The notes under the pieces were generated by a model. That model searched no databases. It had not been told where the DNA came from and was given only the letters and a program-made list of their open reading frames with translations. A stretch of DNA of 64,000 bases, from the NCBI GenBank assembly GCA_041749375.1, contig JBGTBN010000035.1:7016-71015 (forward strand), written 5' to 3'. Made by a program: the position numbers and the translations under genes. Positions 855-59,529 of this stretch are shown in pieces. The stretch comes from Spirochaetota bacterium (lineage in GTDB: Bacteria; Spirochaetota; UBA4802; UBA5550). Numbering within the stretch: the first letter of the stretch is position 1; every line of letters starts with the position of its first letter.

Positions 855-3137
855 TTATTTTTTGTCCGCACCGACCCACGGTGTCGCTTTGCCGTACACC
901 AGGAACGGCATTGGGTTGAGCGTGCCGGCCGATGCCGGGAGCGAGCCGAGCCCCAGGAAGAGCGCGCCGTTGATCTTCCTGATCTCGTCGTGCGGCCGCA
1001 TCGGGGCAAACCCCATCGATTCGGTGTAATCGACATGAAACGAATTCTTCTCGTCATAGGCGGACTTCGCGATAGACGTTTTCATCTCGCGGACGCGTTC
1101 GAACGATTCCGTGCCGTCAACCGTACTGCTGAACAGGTTGTACCCGCGCTGTTCTTTCGGCAGGAACGCCTTGCCGCTCCACGAACCGGGCCCGAACAGG
1201 AAGGCTGCATAGAAGTCGGAGACGTACGTCAATACGCCGCCACCGGTCATGGCGGCCCGGTATTCGCCCTCGAGGTCTTTCGCTTCCGGCGCCGGCGCGG
1301 CGTAGAAAAGCTGCATGACCTGCGCCCGTGAGAGCCGGGTGACATCGTCAAACGTGGCTTTGTCAGCCTGTTTGCCGAGTATCTGCTCCATGGTCTGTCC
1401 CTTGTACCCGCCGCACCCCTTCTGGGCAATGTTGATACCGGTCAGGACGGCATCGGCCAAAACAATGATGCATGCGACAATTAAAATCTTCTTTAATACT
1501 TTCATCGATACGCTCCTTTTTTCCGCTGGTATATTGTTTGATAAATAATTCTTCGGTGCCTTTTTCTTCGCCGGGATGCGGCTCATGGCCCGTTCCGCGA
1601 GGGCCGTGATGGTAAGGCTCGGGTTCACGCCCACGTTGGCGGAGACTGCGGCGCCGTCTACGACGTAGAGCCCGGGATAGTTGAAGACTTCATGGTCCGT
1701 GCTGATCACCCCGTCTTCAGCGGAGGAGCCCATGTGGCACCCCCCCAGGATATGCGCGGTGGTGGACTGGGACAGCAGGCTCTCCATGATGACGTTGATC
1801 GGCGTTCCGCCCAGCTCCTCGGCCAGTACCCGCGCCGCCTCGTTGGCCACCGGGAGATTCGTGGGCGCCTCCTTGCCTTTCCATTTCTTTGACTTGAGCC
1901 GCCGCGACAGGAAGAGGGTCGCCAGGCTCCTGCCGTATTTGAACGAGATCCGGTTGTCCAGATTCTGCATCACGGTGAGGATGATGACACGCTTGTGCCA
2001 GTTGCGCGCGAACCAGTTCCTGGCAAGGGACGCCGGTCTGACGAGCATGACGGCGAGGGTCTTGAGAGATCTCCGCACGGGATGATCGTCGTCGACCAGG
2101 GGGCCGGCGTACCAGCGCATGAAGCCGTACCCGCGGGGAAAGCGGTTCTGTGTTATATGGGTGTGGGCGTCCGGGTAGAAGTCGGTCGAGATGGTGGTGC
2201 CGTGCGACAGGTCGAGATCCCTGTCCGGGGATAGGGCGCCGACGATCGACTCGCTGTTGGTCCGCACGATGCGGCCCAGCTGACCGGAGATGCGGGGGAG
2301 CGTTTTCGTGATGTCGCGGCACCGGAACAGGAGCTCCAGCGTGCCCAACACACCCGCGGCGATGATGACCCTGCCTGCCCGGATTTCTGGGCAGCGCTTA
2401 AGCGGTCGTGTCGGGTCCGAGATCTTCAGCCGGTAGCCGCTTTTATCGCCGGGGACGATGTTTGTCACTCTGCGGTTCGGAAGAATCGTGGTCCCGAGCT
2501 TCTCGGCAAGATAGAGATAGTTCTTGTCCAGGGTGTTTTTCGACCCGTGCTTGCACCCCGTGAGGCACTCGCCGCAAAGATGGCACCCGTCGCGCGCAGG
2601 ACCGCGCCCGCCGAAGTAGGGGTCCTCCCTGGTGACCTCGGGCGTGCCGAAGTAAATTCCGTTTTTCACGGACCCGAAGGTTGCGAGCGCGCCCATGCGC
2701 TTCGCGGCCTTCCTGAGATACTCGTCCATGATGTCCATGCCCGGGTTCTCCTTCAGCCCGAGCATTTTACCCGCGGTATCGTAATGCTTCTTCAGCTCCT
2801 TTTTCCAGTCCAGTCCCAGGCCGCTCCAGGACGGGTCATGGTAGAAGTCGTCCTTCGGCTTGAGTAAAACGGCGGCGTACACGATGCTGCCGCCGCCCAC
2901 GCCCACGCCGCCGACGATGCTGACATGCTTGAAAAAGCTCTGCGTGAAAAAGCCCTTCAGCCCTGCCTGCGGCATCCAGAACAGCTTGAATATGCTCTTC
3001 GACGCTTCCTCCATGTCGATGGGCGTAACCCTGTTGCCCTGCTCGATCACGACGACCCGGTATCCTTTTTCCGCCAGGCGGAGCGCCGATACACTGCCGC
3101 CGAAGCCGCTTCCGATAATCGCGAAATCATAATCCAT
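855..3137 (-). CDS. GMC-family FAD oxidoreductase continuing in frame into a TM/lipobox segment plus ~190-aa domain of unknown function
   Basis: AGGAG SD lies 6 nt before the ATG at 3137. Contains the FAD motif IIGSGFGGSVSALRLAEKG and the GMC C-terminal block HILGGCHMG..VVDGAAVSANVGVNPSLTI. No stop occurs before MKVLKKILIVACIIVL. Confidence 0.85.
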   Translation of the reverse strand: MDYDFAIIGSGFGGSVSALRLAEKGYRVVVIEQGNRVTPIDMEEASKSIFKLFWMPQAGLKGFFTQSFFKHVSIVGGVGVGGGSIVYAAVLLKPKDDFYHDPSWSGLGLDWKKELKKHYDTAGKMLGLKENPGMDIMDEYLRKAAKRMGALATFGSVKNGIYFGTPEVTREDPYFGGRGPARDGCHLCGECLTGCKHGSKNTLDKNYLYLAEKLGTTILPNRRVTNIVPGDKSGYRLKISDPTRPLKRCPEIRAGRVIIAAGVLGTLELLFRCRDITKTLPRISGQLGRIVRTNSESIVGALSPDRDLDLSHGTTISTDFYPDAHTHITQNRFPRGYGFMRWYAGPLVDDDHPVRRSLKTLAVMLVRPASLARNWFARNWHKRVIILTVMQNLDNRISFKYGRSLATLFLSRRLKSKKWKGKEAPTNLPVANEAARVLAEELGGTPINVIMESLLSQSTTAHILGGCHMGSSAEDGVISTDHEVFNYPGLYVVDGAAVSANVGVNPSLTITALAERAMSRIPAKKKAPKNYLSNNIPAEKRSVSMKVLKKILIVACIIVLADAVLTGINIAQKGCGGYKGQTMEQILGKQADKATFDDVTRLSRAQVMQLFYAAPAPEAKDLEGEYRAAMTGGGVLTYVSDFYAAFLFGPGSWSGKAFLPKEQRGYNLFSSTVDGTESFERVREMKTSIAKSAYDEKNSFHVDYTESMGFAPMRPHDEIRKINGALFLGLGSLPASAGTLNPMPFLVYGKATPWVGADKK

Positions 3138-3684
3138 TCTGCTCTCCTTGACTCGTAGTTTGATGCCCGGAACTTTCAATCTCTTCCCCCGTGTCAGCGC
3201 CGCCGGTCCCGCCGGGTCCGGGGATTTGACGGCCGGCTGCTCCGGCGCGGGGTGCAAGTATTTTTTGTAAGTGTACTGCAGTTTTGAAAAATGAAGCTAT
3301 GTCCTCTTCGCTGAATCCGGCGAGGTTGCTTCTCAGCAGCTCATATGTCTGGTCTTCGATCATTCTGACCGCGGTCTTTCCCTCCGGCTTCAGGTACACC
3401 AGCACGTTCCTCTTGTCAGACGCGTCTTTTTTCCTGTCCGCCAGTTTCTTTTTCTGGAGCCGATCGACCACCCGCGTAGCAGTGCTTACCGGTATATTCA
3501 TCTCTGCCGCAATATCGCTCATCCTGGCCGGCGAGCTGTTTCTTAAAAATTGAAGGAGGTAGATGTCCTCGTAGTCCAGGCCGAAGACAATGACTTTCGA
3601 TTGCTGAAATTTATACACTGCCTGGAGCGCCTTGAAGAGGATCTCGTCCAGCCTGTCTCGCGGGATGTCGTTTAATAGTGTCAT
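3127..3684 (-). CDS. MarR-family transcriptional regulator
   Basis: Winged-helix block MSDIAAEMNIPVSTATRVVDRLQKKKLADRKKDASDKRNVLVYLKPEGK. The 3' end overlaps the GMC start by 11 nt. Confidence 0.85.
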   Translation of the reverse strand: MTLLNDIPRDRLDEILFKALQAVYKFQQSKVIVFGLDYEDIYLLQFLRNSSPARMSDIAAEMNIPVSTATRVVDRLQKKKLADRKKDASDKRNVLVYLKPEGKTAVRMIEDQTYELLRSNLAGFSEEDIASFFKTAVHLQKILAPRAGAAGRQIPGPGGTGGADTGEEIESSGHQTTSQGEQNGL

Positions 3685-8059: not shown

Positions 8060-9874
8060 TTGAAGCTCATACCGATCCTTCTGCTGTTCGCCTGTGCCAA
8101 TTATCTCTACCTTGGAGTCGCAACCTACAGGCTTGACCGCCGGTCGCCCGTCAACCGGCTCGTTCTGCTGCTCTGCTGCGCCTTCGCCCTCTGGTCTTTT
8201 TCCTTCGCGTTCATGAATTCGAGCCAGGAGAGGGGAATAGCCCTTCTCTGGTACGCGCTCTCGACGATTGGATGGACCCTGTTCAGCCCCATTACCCTCC
8301 ATATCGCTCTCCTGATCTCGCACAACGAGCGGTATCTCAACCCGTACTCCATTTCGCTCATATACAGCACCTCGGTCATAAGCGTTATTATTATCGCAGT
8401 TTTTCTGATCGGCCCGGATGTCCTGACCAGGGTGCCGGGCGGATGGGTCCCGTCATATAACATCAGCCCGGCGCTGATGATCGCCTTCATAACATGGTAT
8501 CTGCTTTTCATGGTTATCGCGGGCATCGCCGTCTACCGGTGGGGCCGCCGATCCCCGTTCAAGCGGGAGAAGAAACAGGTAAAGATAATCCTCCTGACCT
8601 CCCTCGCGGCCCTCTCCCTGGGGTCAATTACGGATAATATTCTTCCGGCCCTGAACGTGCAGATCGTCCCGCTCACTGCCCCGATATTCGGCATGATCTG
8701 GATGTACGGGTTCTGGTACGTTATCAAGCGCTACCGGCTCCTTGCCCTCAATACGTCGTTCGCGGCCAAGGAGATCATCAACACCATGCACGACCATCTT
8801 ATCATGACCGACTTTAACGGTGCGGTCATACAGGCCAGTCCGCACACCTGCGAGGCCATGGGCCGCAGCGAGGATGATATCCGCGGCGTCCCGATAGCCA
8901 TTCTCGTCGCCGAGCAGGAGCGGCTTGACGAAGAGATCGTCAGGTTCCGCACGACCCCGCTGGACAGCCTGAGCGATGAATTCAAGCTGAAGATGAAGGC
9001 CGGCGGCTCGATCCCGGTGCGTCTTTCCGCGTCGGCCCTGCGCGACCGGGAGGGCGACCTGATGGGGATCGTGTTCGTGGGATACGATTTGCGCGAGACG
9101 AAAAAGCTCCTCGAGATGCAGAGGATCGCGGACATCGAGATGGAGATGGCCTCCCTTGTACAGTCCGGTATTTTTCCGCAAAACCCGCCGTCGGTCAGGG
9201 AGTGGCAGATCGCGGTGCTCTTCCGCCCCGTAACCCCGGTATCCGGGGACTTCTATGATTTTTACGAATCGAACGGGAAGCTGGAGGGGGTGTCCCTGTT
9301 TGACGTATCGGGCCACGGCGTGTCAGCCGGCCTTATCACCATGATAGCCTCCTCCGCCGTCCGCCATATATTCAGGGAGTGCTCAAGCGTTCCGCTGGGC
9401 GGGGTCATGGGCATCATCAACGAGGCGCTGGGGAAAGAGATCTGCCACGTGGACAATTTCCTCACCGGCATGCTGCTCAGGTTCAAGGATTTCGAGGTCG
9501 AGTACGCCAACGCGGCGCACACGCAGCTCCTGTGCAGGAGCGGTACGGACGGCTCGGTCTCCGTCGTCAACCGCGAGGGCGAGGATTTCAGGGGGCCGCT
9601 CCTCGGGATAAAAGAGGAAGGAATTTATTTTGATCAGCTGACATTTACCGTGACTCCGGGAGACCAGATCCTGGTATATTCCGACGCACTCGTCGAAACC
9701 ATGGACGCGGGGCGCATGCACTACGGCCAGGACAGGCTGGCGGAATCATTCCGGGCAGCGCCGGGGAACCCGATGGAGGCTGTGGAGCAGATCGTGCGCG
9801 ACGCGGAGAGCCACATGAACGGACTGCCATGGAAGGATGATCTCTCGATCATACTCATGAAGAGGATCATGTAG
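8060..9874 (+). CDS. Multi-TM sensor with PAS and PP2C/SpoIIE-type Ser/Thr phosphatase domain (RsbU-like)
   Basis: TTG start with a GGAG SD. About 7 TM helices, a PAS-like segment, and SpoIIE motifs SGDFYDFY..LFDVSGHGVSAGL..VYSDALVE. Confidence 0.85.
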   Translation: MKLIPILLLFACANYLYLGVATYRLDRRSPVNRLVLLLCCAFALWSFSFAFMNSSQERGIALLWYALSTIGWTLFSPITLHIALLISHNERYLNPYSISLIYSTSVISVIIIAVFLIGPDVLTRVPGGWVPSYNISPALMIAFITWYLLFMVIAGIAVYRWGRRSPFKREKKQVKIILLTSLAALSLGSITDNILPALNVQIVPLTAPIFGMIWMYGFWYVIKRYRLLALNTSFAAKEIINTMHDHLIMTDFNGAVIQASPHTCEAMGRSEDDIRGVPIAILVAEQERLDEEIVRFRTTPLDSLSDEFKLKMKAGGSIPVRLSASALRDREGDLMGIVFVGYDLRETKKLLEMQRIADIEMEMASLVQSGIFPQNPPSVREWQIAVLFRPVTPVSGDFYDFYESNGKLEGVSLFDVSGHGVSAGLITMIASSAVRHIFRECSSVPLGGVMGIINEALGKEICHVDNFLTGMLLRFKDFEVEYANAAHTQLLCRSGTDGSVSVVNREGEDFRGPLLGIKEEGIYFDQLTFTVTPGDQILVYSDALVETMDAGRMHYGQDRLAESFRAAPGNPMEAVEQIVRDAESHMNGLPWKDDLSIILMKRIM

Positions 9875-9968
9875 CTGGTGCAGCGTCGGAATAATTAACT
9901 TCCGAACGATAAACGTTTTTTACATGCTTTAGCTGATCCCGGTAAAAAACAGAGGCAGGAGGGTCGAG

Positions 9969-10388
9969 ATGGGGCTGAAGGGGGACTTCATCAGGGGCGT
10001 GCCGCCCGGGATAGACGAGCTCCGGGGTTATTATGAGGTGCGTCTTGTCACCGGTTTTTTGCCCGGCATACGCTTCTTCGGCCACAGGAAATTTTTCCCG
10101 GATGACGTCTCCCTGGAAAACGGCGGTTCCGGCGGCTATAACGAGTTCCTGGGATTTCTCCGTATCGGCAGTTTCAAGATCGGCGTGAAGGACTCGGTCC
10201 TGGGCGACGGGCAGCTCGTTCTTCACATTAATTACAACCGGAAAGGGAACTGCTTTCTCGTCAGGCCTCTCAACGACGAGCTGAAGAGGACCGGGGAGGG
10301 TCGTTACCTCGGCAGGGGCATATTCAGGTTCGGGAAGCTCGCGTTCAATTCATTCTATTTCACGGTAACACGTACCGGCCCGGCCTGA
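9969..10388 (+). CDS. Hypothetical protein related to the C-terminal module of the GMC ORF 855..3137
   Basis: AGGAGG SD. Shared blocks with 855..1505: LRGYYE/LEGEYR, RKFFP/GKAFLP, GYNEF/GYNLF, HINY/HVDY, VRPLNDELKR/MRPHDEIRK, YLGRG/FLGLG. Confidence 0.6.
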   Translation: MGLKGDFIRGVPPGIDELRGYYEVRLVTGFLPGIRFFGHRKFFPDDVSLENGGSGGYNEFLGFLRIGSFKIGVKDSVLGDGQLVLHINYNRKGNCFLVRPLNDELKRTGEGRYLGRGIFRFGKLAFNSFYFTVTRTGPA

Positions 10389-10420
10389 GACCGGCATGAT
10401 TCCATTGGAGGACAGGGCAT

Positions 10421-10858
10421 ATGAATGCACCAGAAAATAATGCGGGACTGCGGATCCTCAGGGGAAGATACGGCGCGATATTCAGCGCGGTCATGAACGC
10501 AATAATTCCGCGGGGCGGCGCCTTCGGGCCGGGAGCGGCGGATTATGACCTCCTGCCGCTGGCGGATGAGATAGTGAAGAGCTATGACCCCGCCATCAGG
10601 AAGTTATTCCCGCTGGTTCTTGACTACGTGCAGTTCAGTGCCCTGCTCCGGAAGGGGAGGCTGTTTACCGGCCTGGACGAGCGAAAGGGGATGGAGTTCC
10701 TCGGCTCGATGGAGCGGAGCCCCTTCTTGTACCGGCGCATGTTCATCTTGCTGCTCAAGCTGGTCACCATGCTCGCGTTTTACGATAGCGATGAAACGGC
10801 GCGGTTTGCCGGTTATGAGCACGACTGGTGTCATTTAAAAAAAGGACAGGCATCATGA
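10421..10858 (+). CDS. Small accessory subunit-like protein of the GMC oxidoreductase (gluconate 2-dehydrogenase subunit 3-like)
   Basis: 145 aa. Its stop overlaps the GMC start (ATGA). Assignment rests on position and general resemblance only. Confidence 0.5.
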   Translation: MNAPENNAGLRILRGRYGAIFSAVMNAIIPRGGAFGPGAADYDLLPLADEIVKSYDPAIRKLFPLVLDYVQFSALLRKGRLFTGLDERKGMEFLGSMERSPFLYRRMFILLLKLVTMLAFYDSDETARFAGYEHDWCHLKKGQAS

Positions 10859-12372
10859 TACGGACCTATAAAGACTACGCAGGCGATATACGGGAATCAT
10901 GCGATGTGTGCGTCATCGGAAGCGGACCGGGCGGCGGGGTCGTTGCCAAGGAGCTTGCGGAGAAAGGCTTCTCGGTGGTGCTTCTTGAGGAGGGCGGTCA
11001 TTACACGGTCAACGAGTGGGACGGGAAACCGGTCAGCGGACTCAGGGATATGTACCGGGGAGGCGGCTCCACCGGCACCATGGGCAGTCCGTTTATATCC
11101 ATCACGCTCGGGAAGTGCATCGGCGGCACCAGCACCGTGAATTCAGCTACCTGCTTCCGCACGCCCCGAGCAATTTTAAAAAAGTGGCGGGATGAGCTCG
11201 GCCTGGACGCCATGAGAGAGGATATCCTGGACCCTTATTTCGACCGGGTCGAGAAGATCCTCAACGTGACGGAGCTCACCTGGGACATCCTTGGAAATAA
11301 CGCGAAGATCGTGAAGCGCGGATGCGATAGCCTGGGCTATACCTGCAGGCCGCTCCATCACAACGTGAAGGACTGCAAGGGGTGCGGACCCTGCCAGTTC
11401 GGGTGCCCGGAGAACGCCAAGCAGAGCGTTAACGTCACCTACATCCCGATGGCGGACCGGCTCGGCGCGCGCATCTACGCCAACTGCAGGGCCGAGCGGA
11501 TCATCATCCGGGATGGGGCAGCGGTCGGCGTTGAGGGGTCGGTCGTCGACCCGCTCACGGGCAGGGCCGCGCGCCGCGTTTCAATCAGCTCTAAAATCGT
11601 CGTGTCTTCCTGCGGCGCGTTGATAACGCCGTCGCTCCTGATGTGGAGCGGGCTTGCGAACCGCAACATCGGCAGGCATCTGCAGATACATCCCGGCAGC
11701 AGGGTCGTTGCCCTGATGAACGAAACCGTAGAGGGATGGAAAGGGGTTTCGCAGGGCGCCTATATAGACGATTTCGAGAACGAGGGTATCATGATGGAGG
11801 GCGTGATGGTGCACCCCTCTCTGATTCTGGCCGCGCTGCCCGGTGTCGGGTTCCAGCACAAGGAGATGGCCGTGAAGTACAATTACCTGTCCGCGTTCGG
11901 CGTCATGGCGCATGACGAGACGGAAGGCCGGGTCCTGAAGGGAAGGGACCCGAGAAGGGGCATGGCGGTCACTGCCGTCTACCGGATTAAAAAGAACGAT
12001 GTCGAGAAGCTCAAGCGGGGCATCGCGTATCTCTCCAGCATATATTTCGCGGCAGGCGCCGTGCGCGTATACACCGGCATCTCGAAGGTGCCGGTGCTGA
12101 ATTCACCGGAGGAGGCGGCCCGGCTCCTGGAAACGAGGATCAGGGCGAACCAGGTCGAGACGCTGGCCTTTCATCCCCTGGGATCGTGCCGCATGGCAGC
12201 GGACCCGGCTGCGGGCGCCGTCGACCGATGCGGGGAGTCCTTCGAGGTGAAAAATCTGTACGTCGCGGACGGGAGCATCATACCGACATCGCTCGGGGTG
12301 AACCCCCAGATTACGATCATGGCGGTCTCGAACCTTGTTGCCGATTCGATAGCGCGGCGGCTCAACGGTTAG
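10855..12372 (+). CDS. GMC-family FAD oxidoreductase
   Basis: FAD motif VCVIGSGPGGGVVAKELAEKG. C-terminal block HPLGSCRM..VADGSIIPTSLGVNPQITIMA. Confidence 0.9.
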   Translation: MIRTYKDYAGDIRESCDVCVIGSGPGGGVVAKELAEKGFSVVLLEEGGHYTVNEWDGKPVSGLRDMYRGGGSTGTMGSPFISITLGKCIGGTSTVNSATCFRTPRAILKKWRDELGLDAMREDILDPYFDRVEKILNVTELTWDILGNNAKIVKRGCDSLGYTCRPLHHNVKDCKGCGPCQFGCPENAKQSVNVTYIPMADRLGARIYANCRAERIIIRDGAAVGVEGSVVDPLTGRAARRVSISSKIVVSSCGALITPSLLMWSGLANRNIGRHLQIHPGSRVVALMNETVEGWKGVSQGAYIDDFENEGIMMEGVMVHPSLILAALPGVGFQHKEMAVKYNYLSAFGVMAHDETEGRVLKGRDPRRGMAVTAVYRIKKNDVEKLKRGIAYLSSIYFAAGAVRVYTGISKVPVLNSPEEAARLLETRIRANQVETLAFHPLGSCRMAADPAAGAVDRCGESFEVKNLYVADGSIIPTSLGVNPQITIMAVSNLVADSIARRLNG

Positions 12373-12389
12373 CGGCGGCTCCGGCACGG

Positions 12390-13223
12390 TCACCCGCCGT
12401 TCGTCCCGCCACCGGAAGTGCCCGGGTCATACTTGCCAAGGCATTCGGGGCACAGGCTGTGGGTGAATACCATGTCCTTGTTGTCGCGCAGGTACTCCTC
12501 TATGGAGGTCCATGAGTCCGGGTGGAAAGGCCGGCTGTTGTCAGTCCGGATTTTTTTGCAGCCGGCACATATGGGAAGCAGCCGCTCGATCTCGGCCAGA
12601 CGCGCTGCCGCAGTGCGGTACCGCCTCACCTGCTGTATAAACCCTGCGGTTATCCCGATCATGATCAACAGGATGGCTGATCCTGCGAGGATGCCCATGA
12701 CCTTCTGGTCCCCGTCCGCGTGCTTCTGAATGGCGAGAACCGACCGGTCAAGCGACTCCACCAGTGCTTCGTTGTGGGAAAGAACATACGCAAGCGAAGC
12801 ATCGTTTTTTCGATTGATATAACTGATGACGTTTTCCTCGAAATGCTCCCACTGGCGGACGGCGGCGTAAAGCAGCCGCCGGCTTCCCGGGTCGTCCATT
12901 TCCGGTACGTTGACGTATTCGGTTTGCTCCATGCCCAGCGGGATGGCCCCGCCTTCGGCAACGGCGTGTATCGCATCATTGAACACGGCGAGTGTCCTCT
13001 CCACCTCGCTTTTCTTAACCGCGCCGTCCCGGTACAGCAGCACGTATTTCGTTATTTTCTGGGAGAGCATGCGGAGCCGCCCGACGCTGTTGATGCGGGC
13101 ATTGTCGTTGATCTGCATCTCCACGTACTTGGGGATCATGAGTGATGCCAGCATGAGGGGGAGCAGGAGCGCTGCATATATTACATAAACAAGATACGGC
13201 TTTTTGCCGGCTGGTGTATTCAT
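12390..13223 (-). CDS. Two-TM sensor with a PilJ/NarX-type periplasmic domain and a C-terminal Cys4 zinc-ribbon-like tail
   Basis: INSVGRLRMLSQKITK is a PilJ-N type motif. A second TM helix is followed by ICAGCKKIRTD...WTSIEEYL...FTHSLCPEC. Confidence 0.75.
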   Translation of the reverse strand: MNTPAGKKPYLVYVIYAALLLPLMLASLMIPKYVEMQINDNARINSVGRLRMLSQKITKYVLLYRDGAVKKSEVERTLAVFNDAIHAVAEGGAIPLGMEQTEYVNVPEMDDPGSRRLLYAAVRQWEHFEENVISYINRKNDASLAYVLSHNEALVESLDRSVLAIQKHADGDQKVMGILAGSAILLIMIGITAGFIQQVRRYRTAAARLAEIERLLPICAGCKKIRTDNSRPFHPDSWTSIEEYLRDNKDMVFTHSLCPECLGKYDPGTSGGGTNGG

Positions 13224-57462: not shown

Positions 57463-58815
57463 ATGATGAATTTAGATAATCAGCAATTTGATGCTATCGT
57501 TGTCGGCACCGGTCCGGGGGGCGCGACTGTTGCCAAAGAGTTATCCGCTAAAGGCAAAAAAGTCCTGATGCTCGAGTGGGGGCCGGGCGATCCGGTGAAA
57601 GGAAACTTCCGCCAGTATTTCTTCGAGCAGCTGATGCCCGGAAAATGCATGCTCATCACCAACCAGTTCCTCGGCATGGTGCGCGGTATCACGACGGGCG
57701 GCAGCTCTCTGTTTTATTATGGAACCGCGTTTCCCGTCCCGCACAAGATGCTGGCCAAACACGGTATCGACGTGGCGGCCGAGGAAAAGGAAGCGCGGCA
57801 GGAGCTGCCCATCGCTCCGCTCAAGGACGAGATGGTGACGCCGATGGCGCGTACCATAATGAACACGGCGCGCGACCTCGGATACGACTGGAAGAAGCTG
57901 GACAAATTCATGTACCAGGACCGGTGGCAGCCGGACTATAAATTCGGCTACTACGGGGATCCTCACAGGGTGAAGTGGAGCGCGCGCATGTATGTTGAGG
58001 AGGCGGTCAGCAATGGCGCCGTACTAATCAACAAGGCAAAGGTCAGCAACGTCATTTTCAACGGCAACAAGGCTGTCGGCGTCGTTGTGAAAATTAAACG
58101 AAAGACCCATGAGATCTTTGCCCCGAATATAGTGCTCGCGGCAGGAGGCATAGGTTCCGCGGTCATTCTCCGCGCCAGCGGCATCGAGGAGGCCGGGTAT
58201 CATTTCTTCTATGACCCGCTCATCTCCGTGTGCGGCAGGGTGAAGGCCCCCCGGAAGAAGATCAGCGAAATACCGATGTCAACCGGGTGCCATATGGCGG
58301 ATGAAGGTTATGTCATGACCGACATGGCTCTCCCCACAATGATCGACAAGATGTTCGCCCTGGAGGTATTCAGGTTCTGGCGCCTGTTCCAGGCGCGGAA
58401 GACGCTGCGCATAATGATAAAAGCAAAAGACGACCTGGCCGGCAGGCTCACCAACAGCGGCGGCGTGCGGAAGGCGCTCACGAAAAACGACAGGGCCAAG
58501 CTAATGAAGGGATATGAACGGGCCAAGGAGATCCTGAAAAAGGCGGGCGCAAAGGGAATATACAAGACCTGGTACCTGGCCGCGCATCCGGGCGGAACCG
58601 TTAAAATCGGGCAGATACTGGACGCGAACCTCGGAGTGAAACAGTACAAAAACCTGTACGTGTGCGACTGCTCGGTCATCCCCGAGCCGTGGGGACTGCC
58701 GCCGGCGCTGACGATCATCTGCCTGGGCAAGCGCCTTGCAAAGCACCTGATGACGGGGAAACAGTCCATACCCGCAAAAATTGTGAAAACAATTAAAGAG
58801 AAGCTGAGAAACTGA
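57463..58815 (+). CDS. GMC-family FAD oxidoreductase (short, 450 aa)
   Basis: GGAGGAG SD. FDAIVVGTGPGGATVAKELSAKG, and C-terminal HPGGTVKIG..YVCDCSVIPEPWGLPPALTI. Confidence 0.85.
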   Translation: MMNLDNQQFDAIVVGTGPGGATVAKELSAKGKKVLMLEWGPGDPVKGNFRQYFFEQLMPGKCMLITNQFLGMVRGITTGGSSLFYYGTAFPVPHKMLAKHGIDVAAEEKEARQELPIAPLKDEMVTPMARTIMNTARDLGYDWKKLDKFMYQDRWQPDYKFGYYGDPHRVKWSARMYVEEAVSNGAVLINKAKVSNVIFNGNKAVGVVVKIKRKTHEIFAPNIVLAAGGIGSAVILRASGIEEAGYHFFYDPLISVCGRVKAPRKKISEIPMSTGCHMADEGYVMTDMALPTMIDKMFALEVFRFWRLFQARKTLRIMIKAKDDLAGRLTNSGGVRKALTKNDRAKLMKGYERAKEILKKAGAKGIYKTWYLAAHPGGTVKIGQILDANLGVKQYKNLYVCDCSVIPEPWGLPPALTIICLGKRLAKHLMTGKQSIPAKIVKTIKEKLRN

Positions 58816-58914: not shown

Positions 58915-59529
58915 ATGCCCAAGATAGTCGATCATGATAAGTACCGCAAGGAGCTCGCGGACAAGTGCATGGACCTTTTCAGCAAGAAGGGCTACGCGAA
59001 CGTAACCATGCGCGAGATTTCGAAAGAGCTCGGTGTCTCAACCGGGTCGCTCTACCATTATTTTCCGAACAAGGAAGCGATTTTCGCCCACATGGCCGAC
59101 CACTTGAGCCAGAGCGACGTCGCGAACGTGCTTTCGCGGGTTGACGATTCGTTCGGCGCCAGGGACAGGCTCGAGGTCTATGGAGAGCACTGGGCCACAA
59201 ACCGCGGGTATTATCAGAGCATCCTCCTGCTGGCCATCGATTTCATCAGGAATTACACGGGACAGGACAAGGATATTGTCAAGAAGGAGTACGTGCAGTA
59301 CTACATCGACGCGATGGCGGAGAACCTTGATGTCCCGGAAGAGCTCGCGCGGTATATCTATGTTCACATGATCGGCCTCTTCTATTACGAGCTGATTTTC
59401 CCGGGGAGCGGTGCTTTCAGGAAGCAGCTGGAGCTGTTCATCGATATGTTCATTGCGTATGCGGAAAAGCTGAAGCTTGCGCCCGGGGCGCCTGCTCCTG
59501 ACAAACGAAAGGGCAGGTCCGCCGGTTAA
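58915..59529 (+). CDS. TetR-family transcriptional regulator
   Basis: HTH YRKELADKCMDLFSKKGYANVTMREISKELGVSTGSLYHYFPNKEAIF. Confidence 0.9.
   Translation: MPKIVDHDKYRKELADKCMDLFSKKGYANVTMREISKELGVSTGSLYHYFPNKEAIFAHMADHLSQSDVANVLSRVDDSFGARDRLEVYGEHWATNRGYYQSILLLAIDFIRNYTGQDKDIVKKEYVQYYIDAMAENLDVPEELARYIYVHMIGLFYYELIFPGSGAFRKQLELFIDMFIAYAEKLKLAPGAPAPDKRKGRSAG

Follow-up and report, generated by a model that had tools for sequence, protein, structure and literature searches.

Only one solved structure, 4mve, combines the GXWXG (PF14231) and DUF4334 (PF14232) domains, and the function of this protein is unknown. Among the calycin barrels, lipocalin-type prostaglandin D synthase (L-PGDS) and the OlmO spirocyclase possess enzyme activity. 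The three-subunit membrane dehydrogenases of the glucose-methanol-choline (GMC) family, namely gluconate 2-dehydrogenase, fructose dehydrogenase and flavin adenine dinucleotide (FAD)-dependent glucose dehydrogenase, consist of a small subunit, a flavoprotein and a cytochrome c. In steroid oxidation, ChoD-type cholesterol oxidase and 3β/17β-hydroxysteroid dehydrogenases are alternative first enzymes. Here, we compare these systems with a β-barrel domain that is encoded twice in 64,000 nucleotides of DNA from a Spirochaetota bacterium (GCA_041749375.1, contig JBGTBN010000035.1, positions 7,016 to 71,015 of the forward strand; this whole stretch is hereafter called the window). One copy (type 1) is the stand-alone protein P0002, whose gene is followed by a small open reading frame (ORF), S, and by the flavoprotein gene GMC#2. 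The other copy (type 2) is the C-terminal tail of a second GMC flavoprotein, GMC#1. On the basis of sequences and structural models, we propose that the barrel is probably a binding and hand-over module for hydrophobic substrates of lipid/steroid-type alcohol oxidoreductases, with one cytoplasmic paralogue and one that is anchored at the outer face of the membrane.

Homology and fold of the two barrel copies

The preliminary description of this DNA claimed that the product of the ORF at 9969 and the residues encoded by 855-1445 share ordered blocks and thus the same domain. BLASTP of P0002 against the GMC#1 tail gave one collinear alignment of 123 residues (22% identity, E 0.004), which has every block listed there and spans LRGYYE/LEGEYR, RKFFP/GKAFLP, GYNEF/GYNLF, LHINY/FHVDY, LNDELKR/PHDEIRK and YLGRG/FLGLG. 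For profile comparison, the type-1 family was represented by 39 close homologues of 136-157 aa (44 clusters at 50% identity) and the type-2 family by 18 homologues, mostly of about 760 aa, in which the fusion is retained. The hhalign probability was 96.3% (E 1.8e-9) with these alignments and 98.7% (E 1.6e-16, 126 columns) when the type-1 alignment contained 69 sequences. Thus, the profile alignment of the two segments, which had been suggested as a check, is significant. In plain hmmsearch, the type-1 hidden Markov model (HMM) detected fused and anchored tails in more than 25 loci at E values of 1e-6 to 1e-16 (one at 2e-4), and the type-2 HMM detected stand-alone genes at 1e-3 to 1e-7. Each HMM recovered the other family in every locus that holds both. 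A chance or compositional likeness of two unrelated β-rich segments might be suspected from the low pairwise identity and E value of the BLASTP alignment and from the fact that no family model recognises either sequence. However, the profile-profile E value, the reciprocal HMM matches in dozens of loci and the top PDB match shared by two independent models (4mve, see below) have already refuted this explanation, to which we give practically no weight. In both families, Lys, Asn, Tyr and Asp-Glu residues do not vary. Types 1 and 2 share no conserved Cys or His, and His39 of type 1 aligns with a variable type-2 position. As judged from these sequences, types 1 and 2 are distant, old paralogous subtypes of one domain and not the fused and split forms of one gene.

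The AlphaFold2 model of P0002 (pLDDT 91, pTM 0.85) consists of one N-terminal helix and nine strands, and that of the GMC#1 tail (pLDDT 85, pTM 0.85) of a helix followed by 8-9 strands. In Foldseek searches against 350,542 PDB chains, the top match of both models was 4mve_A, with E 4e-3 and TM-scores of 0.57/0.54 for P0002, and E 5.4e-5 and TM-scores of 0.54/0.67 for the tail. The rest of the list for the tail is mostly lipocalins and odorant-binding proteins; both kinds occur also in the list for P0002, which includes streptavidins, Tp0751, nitrophorins and the OlmO spirocyclase. Foldseek probabilities for the lipocalin-type matches were 0.97-1.0. The secondary structure of the models and these matches fit an antiparallel β-barrel of about nine strands with a flanking helix, as in the lipocalins and other calycins (odorant-binding proteins, L-PGDS and bacterial lipocalin-like proteins), but TM-scores of these proteins against the models are just 0.3-0.5 and sequence identities 8-15%.

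We confirmed that 4mve (Tcur_1030 from Thermomonospora curvata) is a GXWXG+DUF4334 protein: a Pfam-positive Leptospira member matches it over both halves (phmmer, E 7.6e-21). No Pfam or NCBIfam model recognises P0002 or the GMC#1 tail. PF14231 and PF14232 gave no match at E ≤ 10 for P0002, the GMC#1 tail, 41 relatives, the stand-alone form of type 2 or a 144-aa relative from Leptospira, and PF14232 found nothing at E ≤ 10 over the whole genome. When single-family profiles were compared with the canonical family, the similarity was weak and not significant (p 0.001-0.01; probabilities of 5-7% with the first canonical alignment and up to 38% with the broadest). A merged type-1 and type-2 profile, in contrast, aligned full-length with the canonical family at 74.9% (E 2.6e-5), and the value rose to 87% (E 4.1e-6, 124 columns, 2-137 versus 23-183) with the broadest alignment of canonical sequences (110); the reversed decoy gave 0.4%. 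The canonical motifs WYGKxF, IYD, PIxDxFR, LG and FFxL (last strand) can be lined up by eye with RKFF/GKAF, INY/VDY, LNDELK/HDEIRK, LG and YFxV/PFxV. The name-giving G-x-W-x-G motif is absent: at the aligned position, type 1 has GYYEV and type 2 has GEYRA, with Tyr in place of Trp (GxYxV). The GSWSG sequence of type 2 aligns with the later canonical WYGK and not with that motif. The new branch differs from the canonical proteins also in that it lacks about 40 residues between the Pfam halves, and type 2 adds a membrane anchor and N-terminal helices.

Because 4mve is the top match for both models and the merged profile reaches 87%, we assign the domain to the GXWXG/DUF4334 lipocalin-like barrels as a diverged branch that lacks annotation, although the Pfam models do not recognise it as a member. 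The loose resemblance to the GXWXG+DUF4334 architecture in the preliminary description therefore holds at the superfamily level, where canonical genes, too, sit directly after ChoD-like GMC genes (see below), but not at the level of the Pfam HMMs. Full-text literature searches found no functional literature for the GXWXG/DUF4334 family.

Type-1 barrels and the barrel/S/GMC#2 operon

We examined 21 type-1 loci, one from an exact-protein look-up and 20 from a scan of species-representative genomes. These loci are not phylogenetically independent, and at least four distinct architectures are represented. A GMC gene is a neighbour of the barrel in 12 of the 21 loci. The background is about 1-2% per random 12-kb stretch, because the genome of the window has five GMC genes in 4.16 Mb. 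Thus, the domain is strongly enriched near GMC genes elsewhere; the preliminary description had named a lack of such enrichment as a refutation. The order barrel/S/GMC#2 was found in six Spirochaetota loci, five of which carry a type-2 barrel a few kb away: in four of them it belongs to a fused or split GMC#1, and in L011 it stands alone after a short-chain dehydrogenase/reductase (SDR) gene. In three Desulfobacterota loci (L014, L016 and L019) and in the metagenomic protein P0062, barrel and S are fused in one ORF, with S at the C-terminus of the barrel behind a linker of 35-45 residues. A GMC#2 orthologue follows the fusion in L014 and L019; the L016 contig ends within the fused ORF. A different GMC of 636 aa lies directly upstream of the barrel in three loci (one from Thermodesulfobacteriota and two from metagenome-assembled genomes of Bacteriovoracaceae). 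In L013, a secreted SRPBCC lipid-binding protein precedes the 636-aa GMC. As a candidate for a fused S, the N-terminal 130-aa GMC extension in L012, L013 and L020 reached only p 0.006 in a comparison of 58 columns.

More distantly related type-1 genes stand in other surroundings. The order TetR/type-1-like barrel/DUF362 (485-502 aa), without GMC, was found in three distinct places (L032 and L033, which have the same protein, L082 and L083). In other cases, the neighbour is a Zn-dependent alcohol dehydrogenase gene 4 nt downstream, a GPAT_C-like gene or an SRPBCC gene; SRPBCC lipid-binding genes adjoin barrels in two independent contexts. Type 1 is rare in Spirochaetota (11 of 401 genomes) and, within the genus of the window, is always accompanied by type 2. 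One metagenomic protein of 295 aa (P0091) carries a type-1 barrel behind residues 48-135, which cover nearly the whole SCP2 sterol-carrier profile at 17.6 bits (threshold 21.3; E 0.005). Because this match is below the threshold, we say only that P0091 might join a lipid carrier to a barrel.

The features of the window are collected in Table 1.

Table 1. Positions of the barrel, oxidoreductase and regulator features in the window
Feature	Position	Strand	Remark
Type-2 barrel domain	858..1424	-	last 189 residues of GMC#1; homologous to the product of ORF 9969
Single hydrophobic transmembrane helix, ILIVACIIVLADAVLTGINIA	1425..1487	-	joins the catalytic part of GMC#1 to the barrel; predicted N-in/C-out
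Internal Shine-Dalgarno sequence AAGGAG (1518-1513) and ATG (1505-1503)	1503..1518	-	just before the transmembrane helix, where stand-alone helix-barrel genes start
GMC#1 catalytic part, ChoD/cholesterol-oxidase-like flavoprotein	1566..3137	-	residues 1 to about 525; a basic linker and then the transmembrane helix follow
MarR-type regulator	3127..3684	-	overlaps the GMC#1 start by 11 nt; heads the cassette MarR/oxidoreductase/transmembrane-barrel
Type-1 barrel gene, P0002, 139 aa	9969..10388	+	first gene of the barrel-S-GMC#2 operon
S, conserved partner ORF, P0003, 145 aa	10421..10858	+	no family model matches
GMC#2 flavoprotein	10855..12372	+	GMC_oxred_N 7.5e-54, GMC_oxred_C 4.2e-24

A strong Shine-Dalgarno sequence (AGGAGG, 9957-9962) precedes the type-1 gene, and a gap of 32 nt separates this gene from S. 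Although the longest ORF of GMC#2 begins at GTG 10828, the true start is most likely ATG 10855, because this ATG overlaps the stop codon of S (ATGA, 10855-10858). A scan for promoters and terminators in 9700-12700 gave nothing that exceeds the shuffled background. P0002 has neither a signal peptide nor a transmembrane segment (maximum 19-residue hydropathy 0.98), and S and GMC#2 likewise have no hydrophobic segment; therefore, we read the type-1 barrel/S/GMC#2 system as cytoplasmic. The overlap of GMC#2 with a small subunit-like ORF, as given in the preliminary description, is real, but the small-subunit label found no HMM support: S matched nothing in Pfam at E ≤ 10, including PF13618 (Gluconate 2-dehydrogenase subunit 3). 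A PF13618 search of the whole genome matched two other places and not 10421-10858. The assignment of S as a gluconate-2-dehydrogenase small subunit is thus unsupported, since PF13618 does not detect it. On another contig of the same genome (G000:C77:52876-54772), a 214-aa ORF that matches Gluconate_2-dh3 weakly (E 0.04) lies just upstream of a 551-aa GMC; this pair looks like a separate set of small subunit and GMC without a barrel.

The operon recalls the three-subunit GMC dehydrogenases in that it has three genes, of which a small one is translationally coupled to that of a GMC flavoprotein. It differs from them because S is not recognised by PF13618 and has, on reading, no twin-arginine-type N-terminus and no transmembrane-like segment, and because the third component is a barrel without cofactor, encoded first in the operon, and not a cytochrome. 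GMC#1 and GMC#2 (proteins P0004 and P0043) both have GMC_oxred_N, GMC_oxred_C and the N-terminal GxGxxG FAD motif. Both also carry a Cys motif of ferredoxin type, CHLCGECLTGC in GMC#1 (about 2460-2500, minus strand) and CKGCGPCQFGCP in GMC#2 (about 11360-11410, plus strand). In GMC#2 the motif reads CxxCxxCxxxCP and coincides with weak Fer4 matches of Pfam, and it is kept in the homologues of GMC#1. As judged from the sequence, CxxCxxCxxxC may bind an iron-sulfur cluster or a metal. With such a possible iron-sulfur site in both flavoproteins and nitrophorins among the distant fold matches, it could be imagined that the barrel is a redox or haem partner of the nitrophorin/nitrobindin kind, which takes electrons from the flavoprotein in place of the cytochrome subunit of the three-subunit enzymes. 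However, the nitrophorin matches have TM-scores of about 0.4 and E values above 0.09, and we consider this role very unlikely, as the two families have no conserved Cys or His in common.

A third GMC-like flavoprotein of the window is shorter (450 aa; 57463-58815, plus strand) and adjoins a TetR gene (58915-59529), with no barrel or S beside it.

Type-2 barrels, GMC#1 and the short-chain dehydrogenases

GMC#1 is a protein of 760 aa (855-3137, minus strand), which starts at the ATG at 3137; its database homologues are also 760 aa long. Its nearest solved structures are cholesterol oxidases (1coy, 3e-25). The NCBIfam equivalog for cholesterol oxidase, NF058674, scored 506 bits over the full model length, below the cut-off of 850, and GMC#1 is thus only cholesterol-oxidase-like by sequence. 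The helix between catalytic part and barrel is conserved: its mean hydropathy was 2.1-2.7 in 15 of the 16 full-length fused homologues scanned. It is the counterpart of the N-terminal signal anchor in the stand-alone versions of type 2. A lipobox (IVAC) in this segment was considered and rejected, since the Cys is not conserved in homologues, the hydrophobic segment is a transmembrane helix of 21 residues, and the stand-alone versions inspected have no lipobox Cys. Because the 15 residues that precede the helix contain 3-6 Lys/Arg and only 1-3 follow it, the predicted orientation is N-in/C-out. According to this sequence-based prediction, the type-2 barrel would lie outside the membrane, and the FAD domain, which lacks a signal peptide, would be inside.

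Just upstream of the helix, the GMC#1 ORF contains a Shine-Dalgarno sequence and an ATG at a spacing of 7 nt. This internal Met is retained in most fused homologues, and the stand-alone genes start with MKK... and then the helix. Because an old start Met and a good Shine-Dalgarno sequence are kept before the helix, the GMC#1-barrel protein looks like a read-through fusion of two genes. The fused gene might additionally yield a free anchored barrel from this putative internal start.

To see the type-2 barrel in other genomes, 401 Spirochaetota genomes were searched with the tail profile. Strong hits were found in 29 non-Leptospira genomes: about 10 lie in frames of 760-813 aa (GMC fusion) and about 22 in frames of 216-251 aa (a separate gene for helix and barrel). 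We examined the neighbourhoods of 20 separate genes. An SDR gene adjoins 16 of the 20, and in 13 of these 16 it lies directly upstream on the same strand; the typical order is MarR/SDR/transmembrane-barrel. The remaining four comprise one gene behind a split GMC#1 (L056), one with another GMC at a distance of 1.6 kb and two with neither. A MarR homologue stands beside the oxidoreductase and barrel genes in seven of the 20 loci (six SDR cassettes and the split-GMC locus L056), and MarR was called also in L006. In L049, which is from the same genus, barrel/S/GMC#2 diverges from the MarR cassette as it does in the window, but SDR replaces GMC#1. The nearest solved structures to the partner SDR are human 17β-HSD11 (1yb1, 4e-46) and HSD17B13, and the next class follows at 1e-30. 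Like the known enzymes of steroid oxidation, a cholesterol-oxidase-like GMC and an HSD17B11/13-like SDR occupy the same place, here in the MarR cassette of sister genomes. Unlike them, GMC#1 is under the equivalog cut-off, and nothing comparable to the barrel partner has been described for the known enzymes.

Because GMC and SDR are exchanged beside the same barrel in the MarR cassette, the conserved unit is a regulator, a lipid/steroid-type alcohol oxidoreductase and an anchored barrel, and the fold of the enzyme is interchangeable. The GMC#1 tail has its genuine split counterpart in the gene of 216-251 aa for helix and barrel, next to SDR in most cases. The Rosetta-stone link of the preliminary description, the same domain fused in one locus and split in another, thus needs revision: the two copies belong to one family and natural barrel-S fusions exist, but the window copies are distant paralogues and the true split form is found beside SDR. 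Likewise, the functional partnership with GMC flavoenzymes persists as recurrent linkage, but it is wider. Since the split form of the GMC#1 tail adjoins SDR, the partnership is with lipid/steroid-type alcohol oxidoreductases generally (GMC, SDR and, in one case, an alcohol dehydrogenase of the medium-chain dehydrogenase/reductase class), and some barrel genes have no such neighbour.

According to the classical Rosetta-stone explanation, the barrel would be a structural subunit docked on the GMC, for stability, assembly or active-site gating, and fusion and operon would reflect one physical complex. The barrel-S fusions in L014, L016, L019 and P0062, the translational coupling of S to GMC#2 and the conserved gene order barrel/S/GMC fit such a complex. 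However, in most genomes the partner of the same barrel type is an SDR, an unrelated enzyme; many barrel genes lack a GMC in their vicinity; and the transmembrane helix separates both parts of the fused protein. We therefore regard docking as improbable. Because the helix is predicted to put the barrel across the membrane, the GMC#1 fusion would point to a shared pathway and co-localisation, and not to contact between the domains.

Two observations concern relatives of type 2. In L056 (G346:C42, 4998-7351), the GMC#1 gene and the transmembrane-barrel gene occupy two overlapping frames, either a natural split or a frameshift of the assembly. Leptospira (19 genomes of the sample; for example L067, 4998-5432) has a 144-aa cytoplasmic relative of the barrel, with E values of 1e-6 to 1e-11 to the tail profile. 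This relative has no oxidoreductase neighbour and coexists with a canonical GXWXG-DUF4334 protein of 184 aa.

Canonical DUF4334 genes were found in comparable contexts. A Nocardioides operon has the order TetR/FMO-like/GMC/GXWXG-DUF4334, with a gap of 20 nt before the last gene; its flavin-containing monooxygenase (FMO) is of Baeyer-Villiger type. In a survey of 251 genomes from the order of Nocardioides, a GMC gene lies immediately upstream on the same strand in eight of 30 DUF4334 loci, and these eight are half of the 16 loci of one DUF4334 subfamily. The actinobacterial GMCs linked to DUF4334 are much closer to GMC#1 (E 1e-60 to 1e-74) than to GMC#2. Two other canonical members that were sampled neighbour an aldehyde dehydrogenase gene or unrelated genes. 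Because canonical DUF4334 genes follow ChoD-like GMCs, the pairing of barrel and ChoD-like GMC is old and wider than the unannotated branch.

Proposed role of the barrel

In the proposed mechanism, the barrel would bind an alcohol or ketone of low solubility, such as a steroid or some other lipid, in a cavity lined by a conserved polar set of Lys (GK/RK), Tyr, Asp-Glu and Arg/Lys, and would pass this ligand to the oxidoreductase or receive it from there. The Lys, Tyr and Asp-Glu of this set are invariant in both new families, and WYGKxF, IYD and PIxDxFR of the canonical family correspond by eye. Type 1 would be a soluble cytoplasmic protein, co-produced with S and GMC#2, and would act as the carrier subunit of an S-GMC#2 complex. 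Type 2 would be anchored by its single helix on the outer face of the cytoplasmic membrane, where it would catch the substrate outside for an enzyme that acts at the inner face. The steroid-like nature of the substrate is a guess by analogy, from the nearest characterised relatives of the partner enzymes, the SRPBCC neighbours and labels (steroid-side-chain-like), as yet unchecked, on genes in the next 25 kb.

Several points weigh against this proposal. Nine of the 21 type-1 loci have no GMC within 6 kb. This is the case for most of the distant type-1 relatives, whose neighbours are DUF362, a Zn-dependent alcohol dehydrogenase, a hydrolase or nothing telling. The topology of the anchored type is a positive-inside prediction only, and the steroid has no other source than the relatives of the partner enzymes and those gene labels. 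Moreover, the invariant polar residues fit an enzyme equally as well as a binding protein.

The last point leads to the possibility that the barrel itself is an enzyme, for example an isomerase, cyclase or hydratase, that acts on the product of the oxidoreductase. The invariant Lys, Asn, Tyr and Asp-Glu of both families would suit a catalytic site, the fold matches include the OlmO/OssO spirocyclases and prostaglandin D synthase, and one actinobacterial operon pairs a barrel with GMC and a Baeyer-Villiger-type FMO. However, these fold matches to barrel enzymes are weak (TM-scores of 0.3-0.45), and we matched no catalytic motif from known barrel enzymes. In addition, the product of an NAD(P)- or FAD-dependent enzyme is cytoplasmic, whereas the predicted location of the anchored type is on the outside of the membrane. 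We consider an enzymatic barrel unlikely and prefer the binding and hand-over module.

A broader proposal, which we put forward as a doubtful one, is that the whole GXWXG/DUF4334 superfamily might consist of dedicated substrate-shuttling or product-processing barrels for lipid/steroid-alcohol oxidoreductases. The anchored type together with a GMC or SDR at the cytoplasmic face might then form an uptake device for sterol-like compounds, which captures outside and oxidises inside and which is, in the window, one membrane-spanning polypeptide.

The GXWXG and DUF4334 domains are widespread, have no assigned function and are represented by one orphan crystal structure. This locus supplies a testable context for them: a recurrent partnership of the barrel with GMC flavoenzymes and HSD17B11/13-like SDRs across at least four phyla. 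The partnership is supported by fusions of the barrel to the flavoprotein and to its small subunit, and by the interchange of GMC and SDR in one conserved cassette. Two unannotated subfamilies, which are missed by the current Pfam models, are added to the family. For largely uncultured bacteria, these findings suggest a possible capture and oxidation of substrates across the membrane, which could bear on the handling of sterol-like or other insoluble alcohols.

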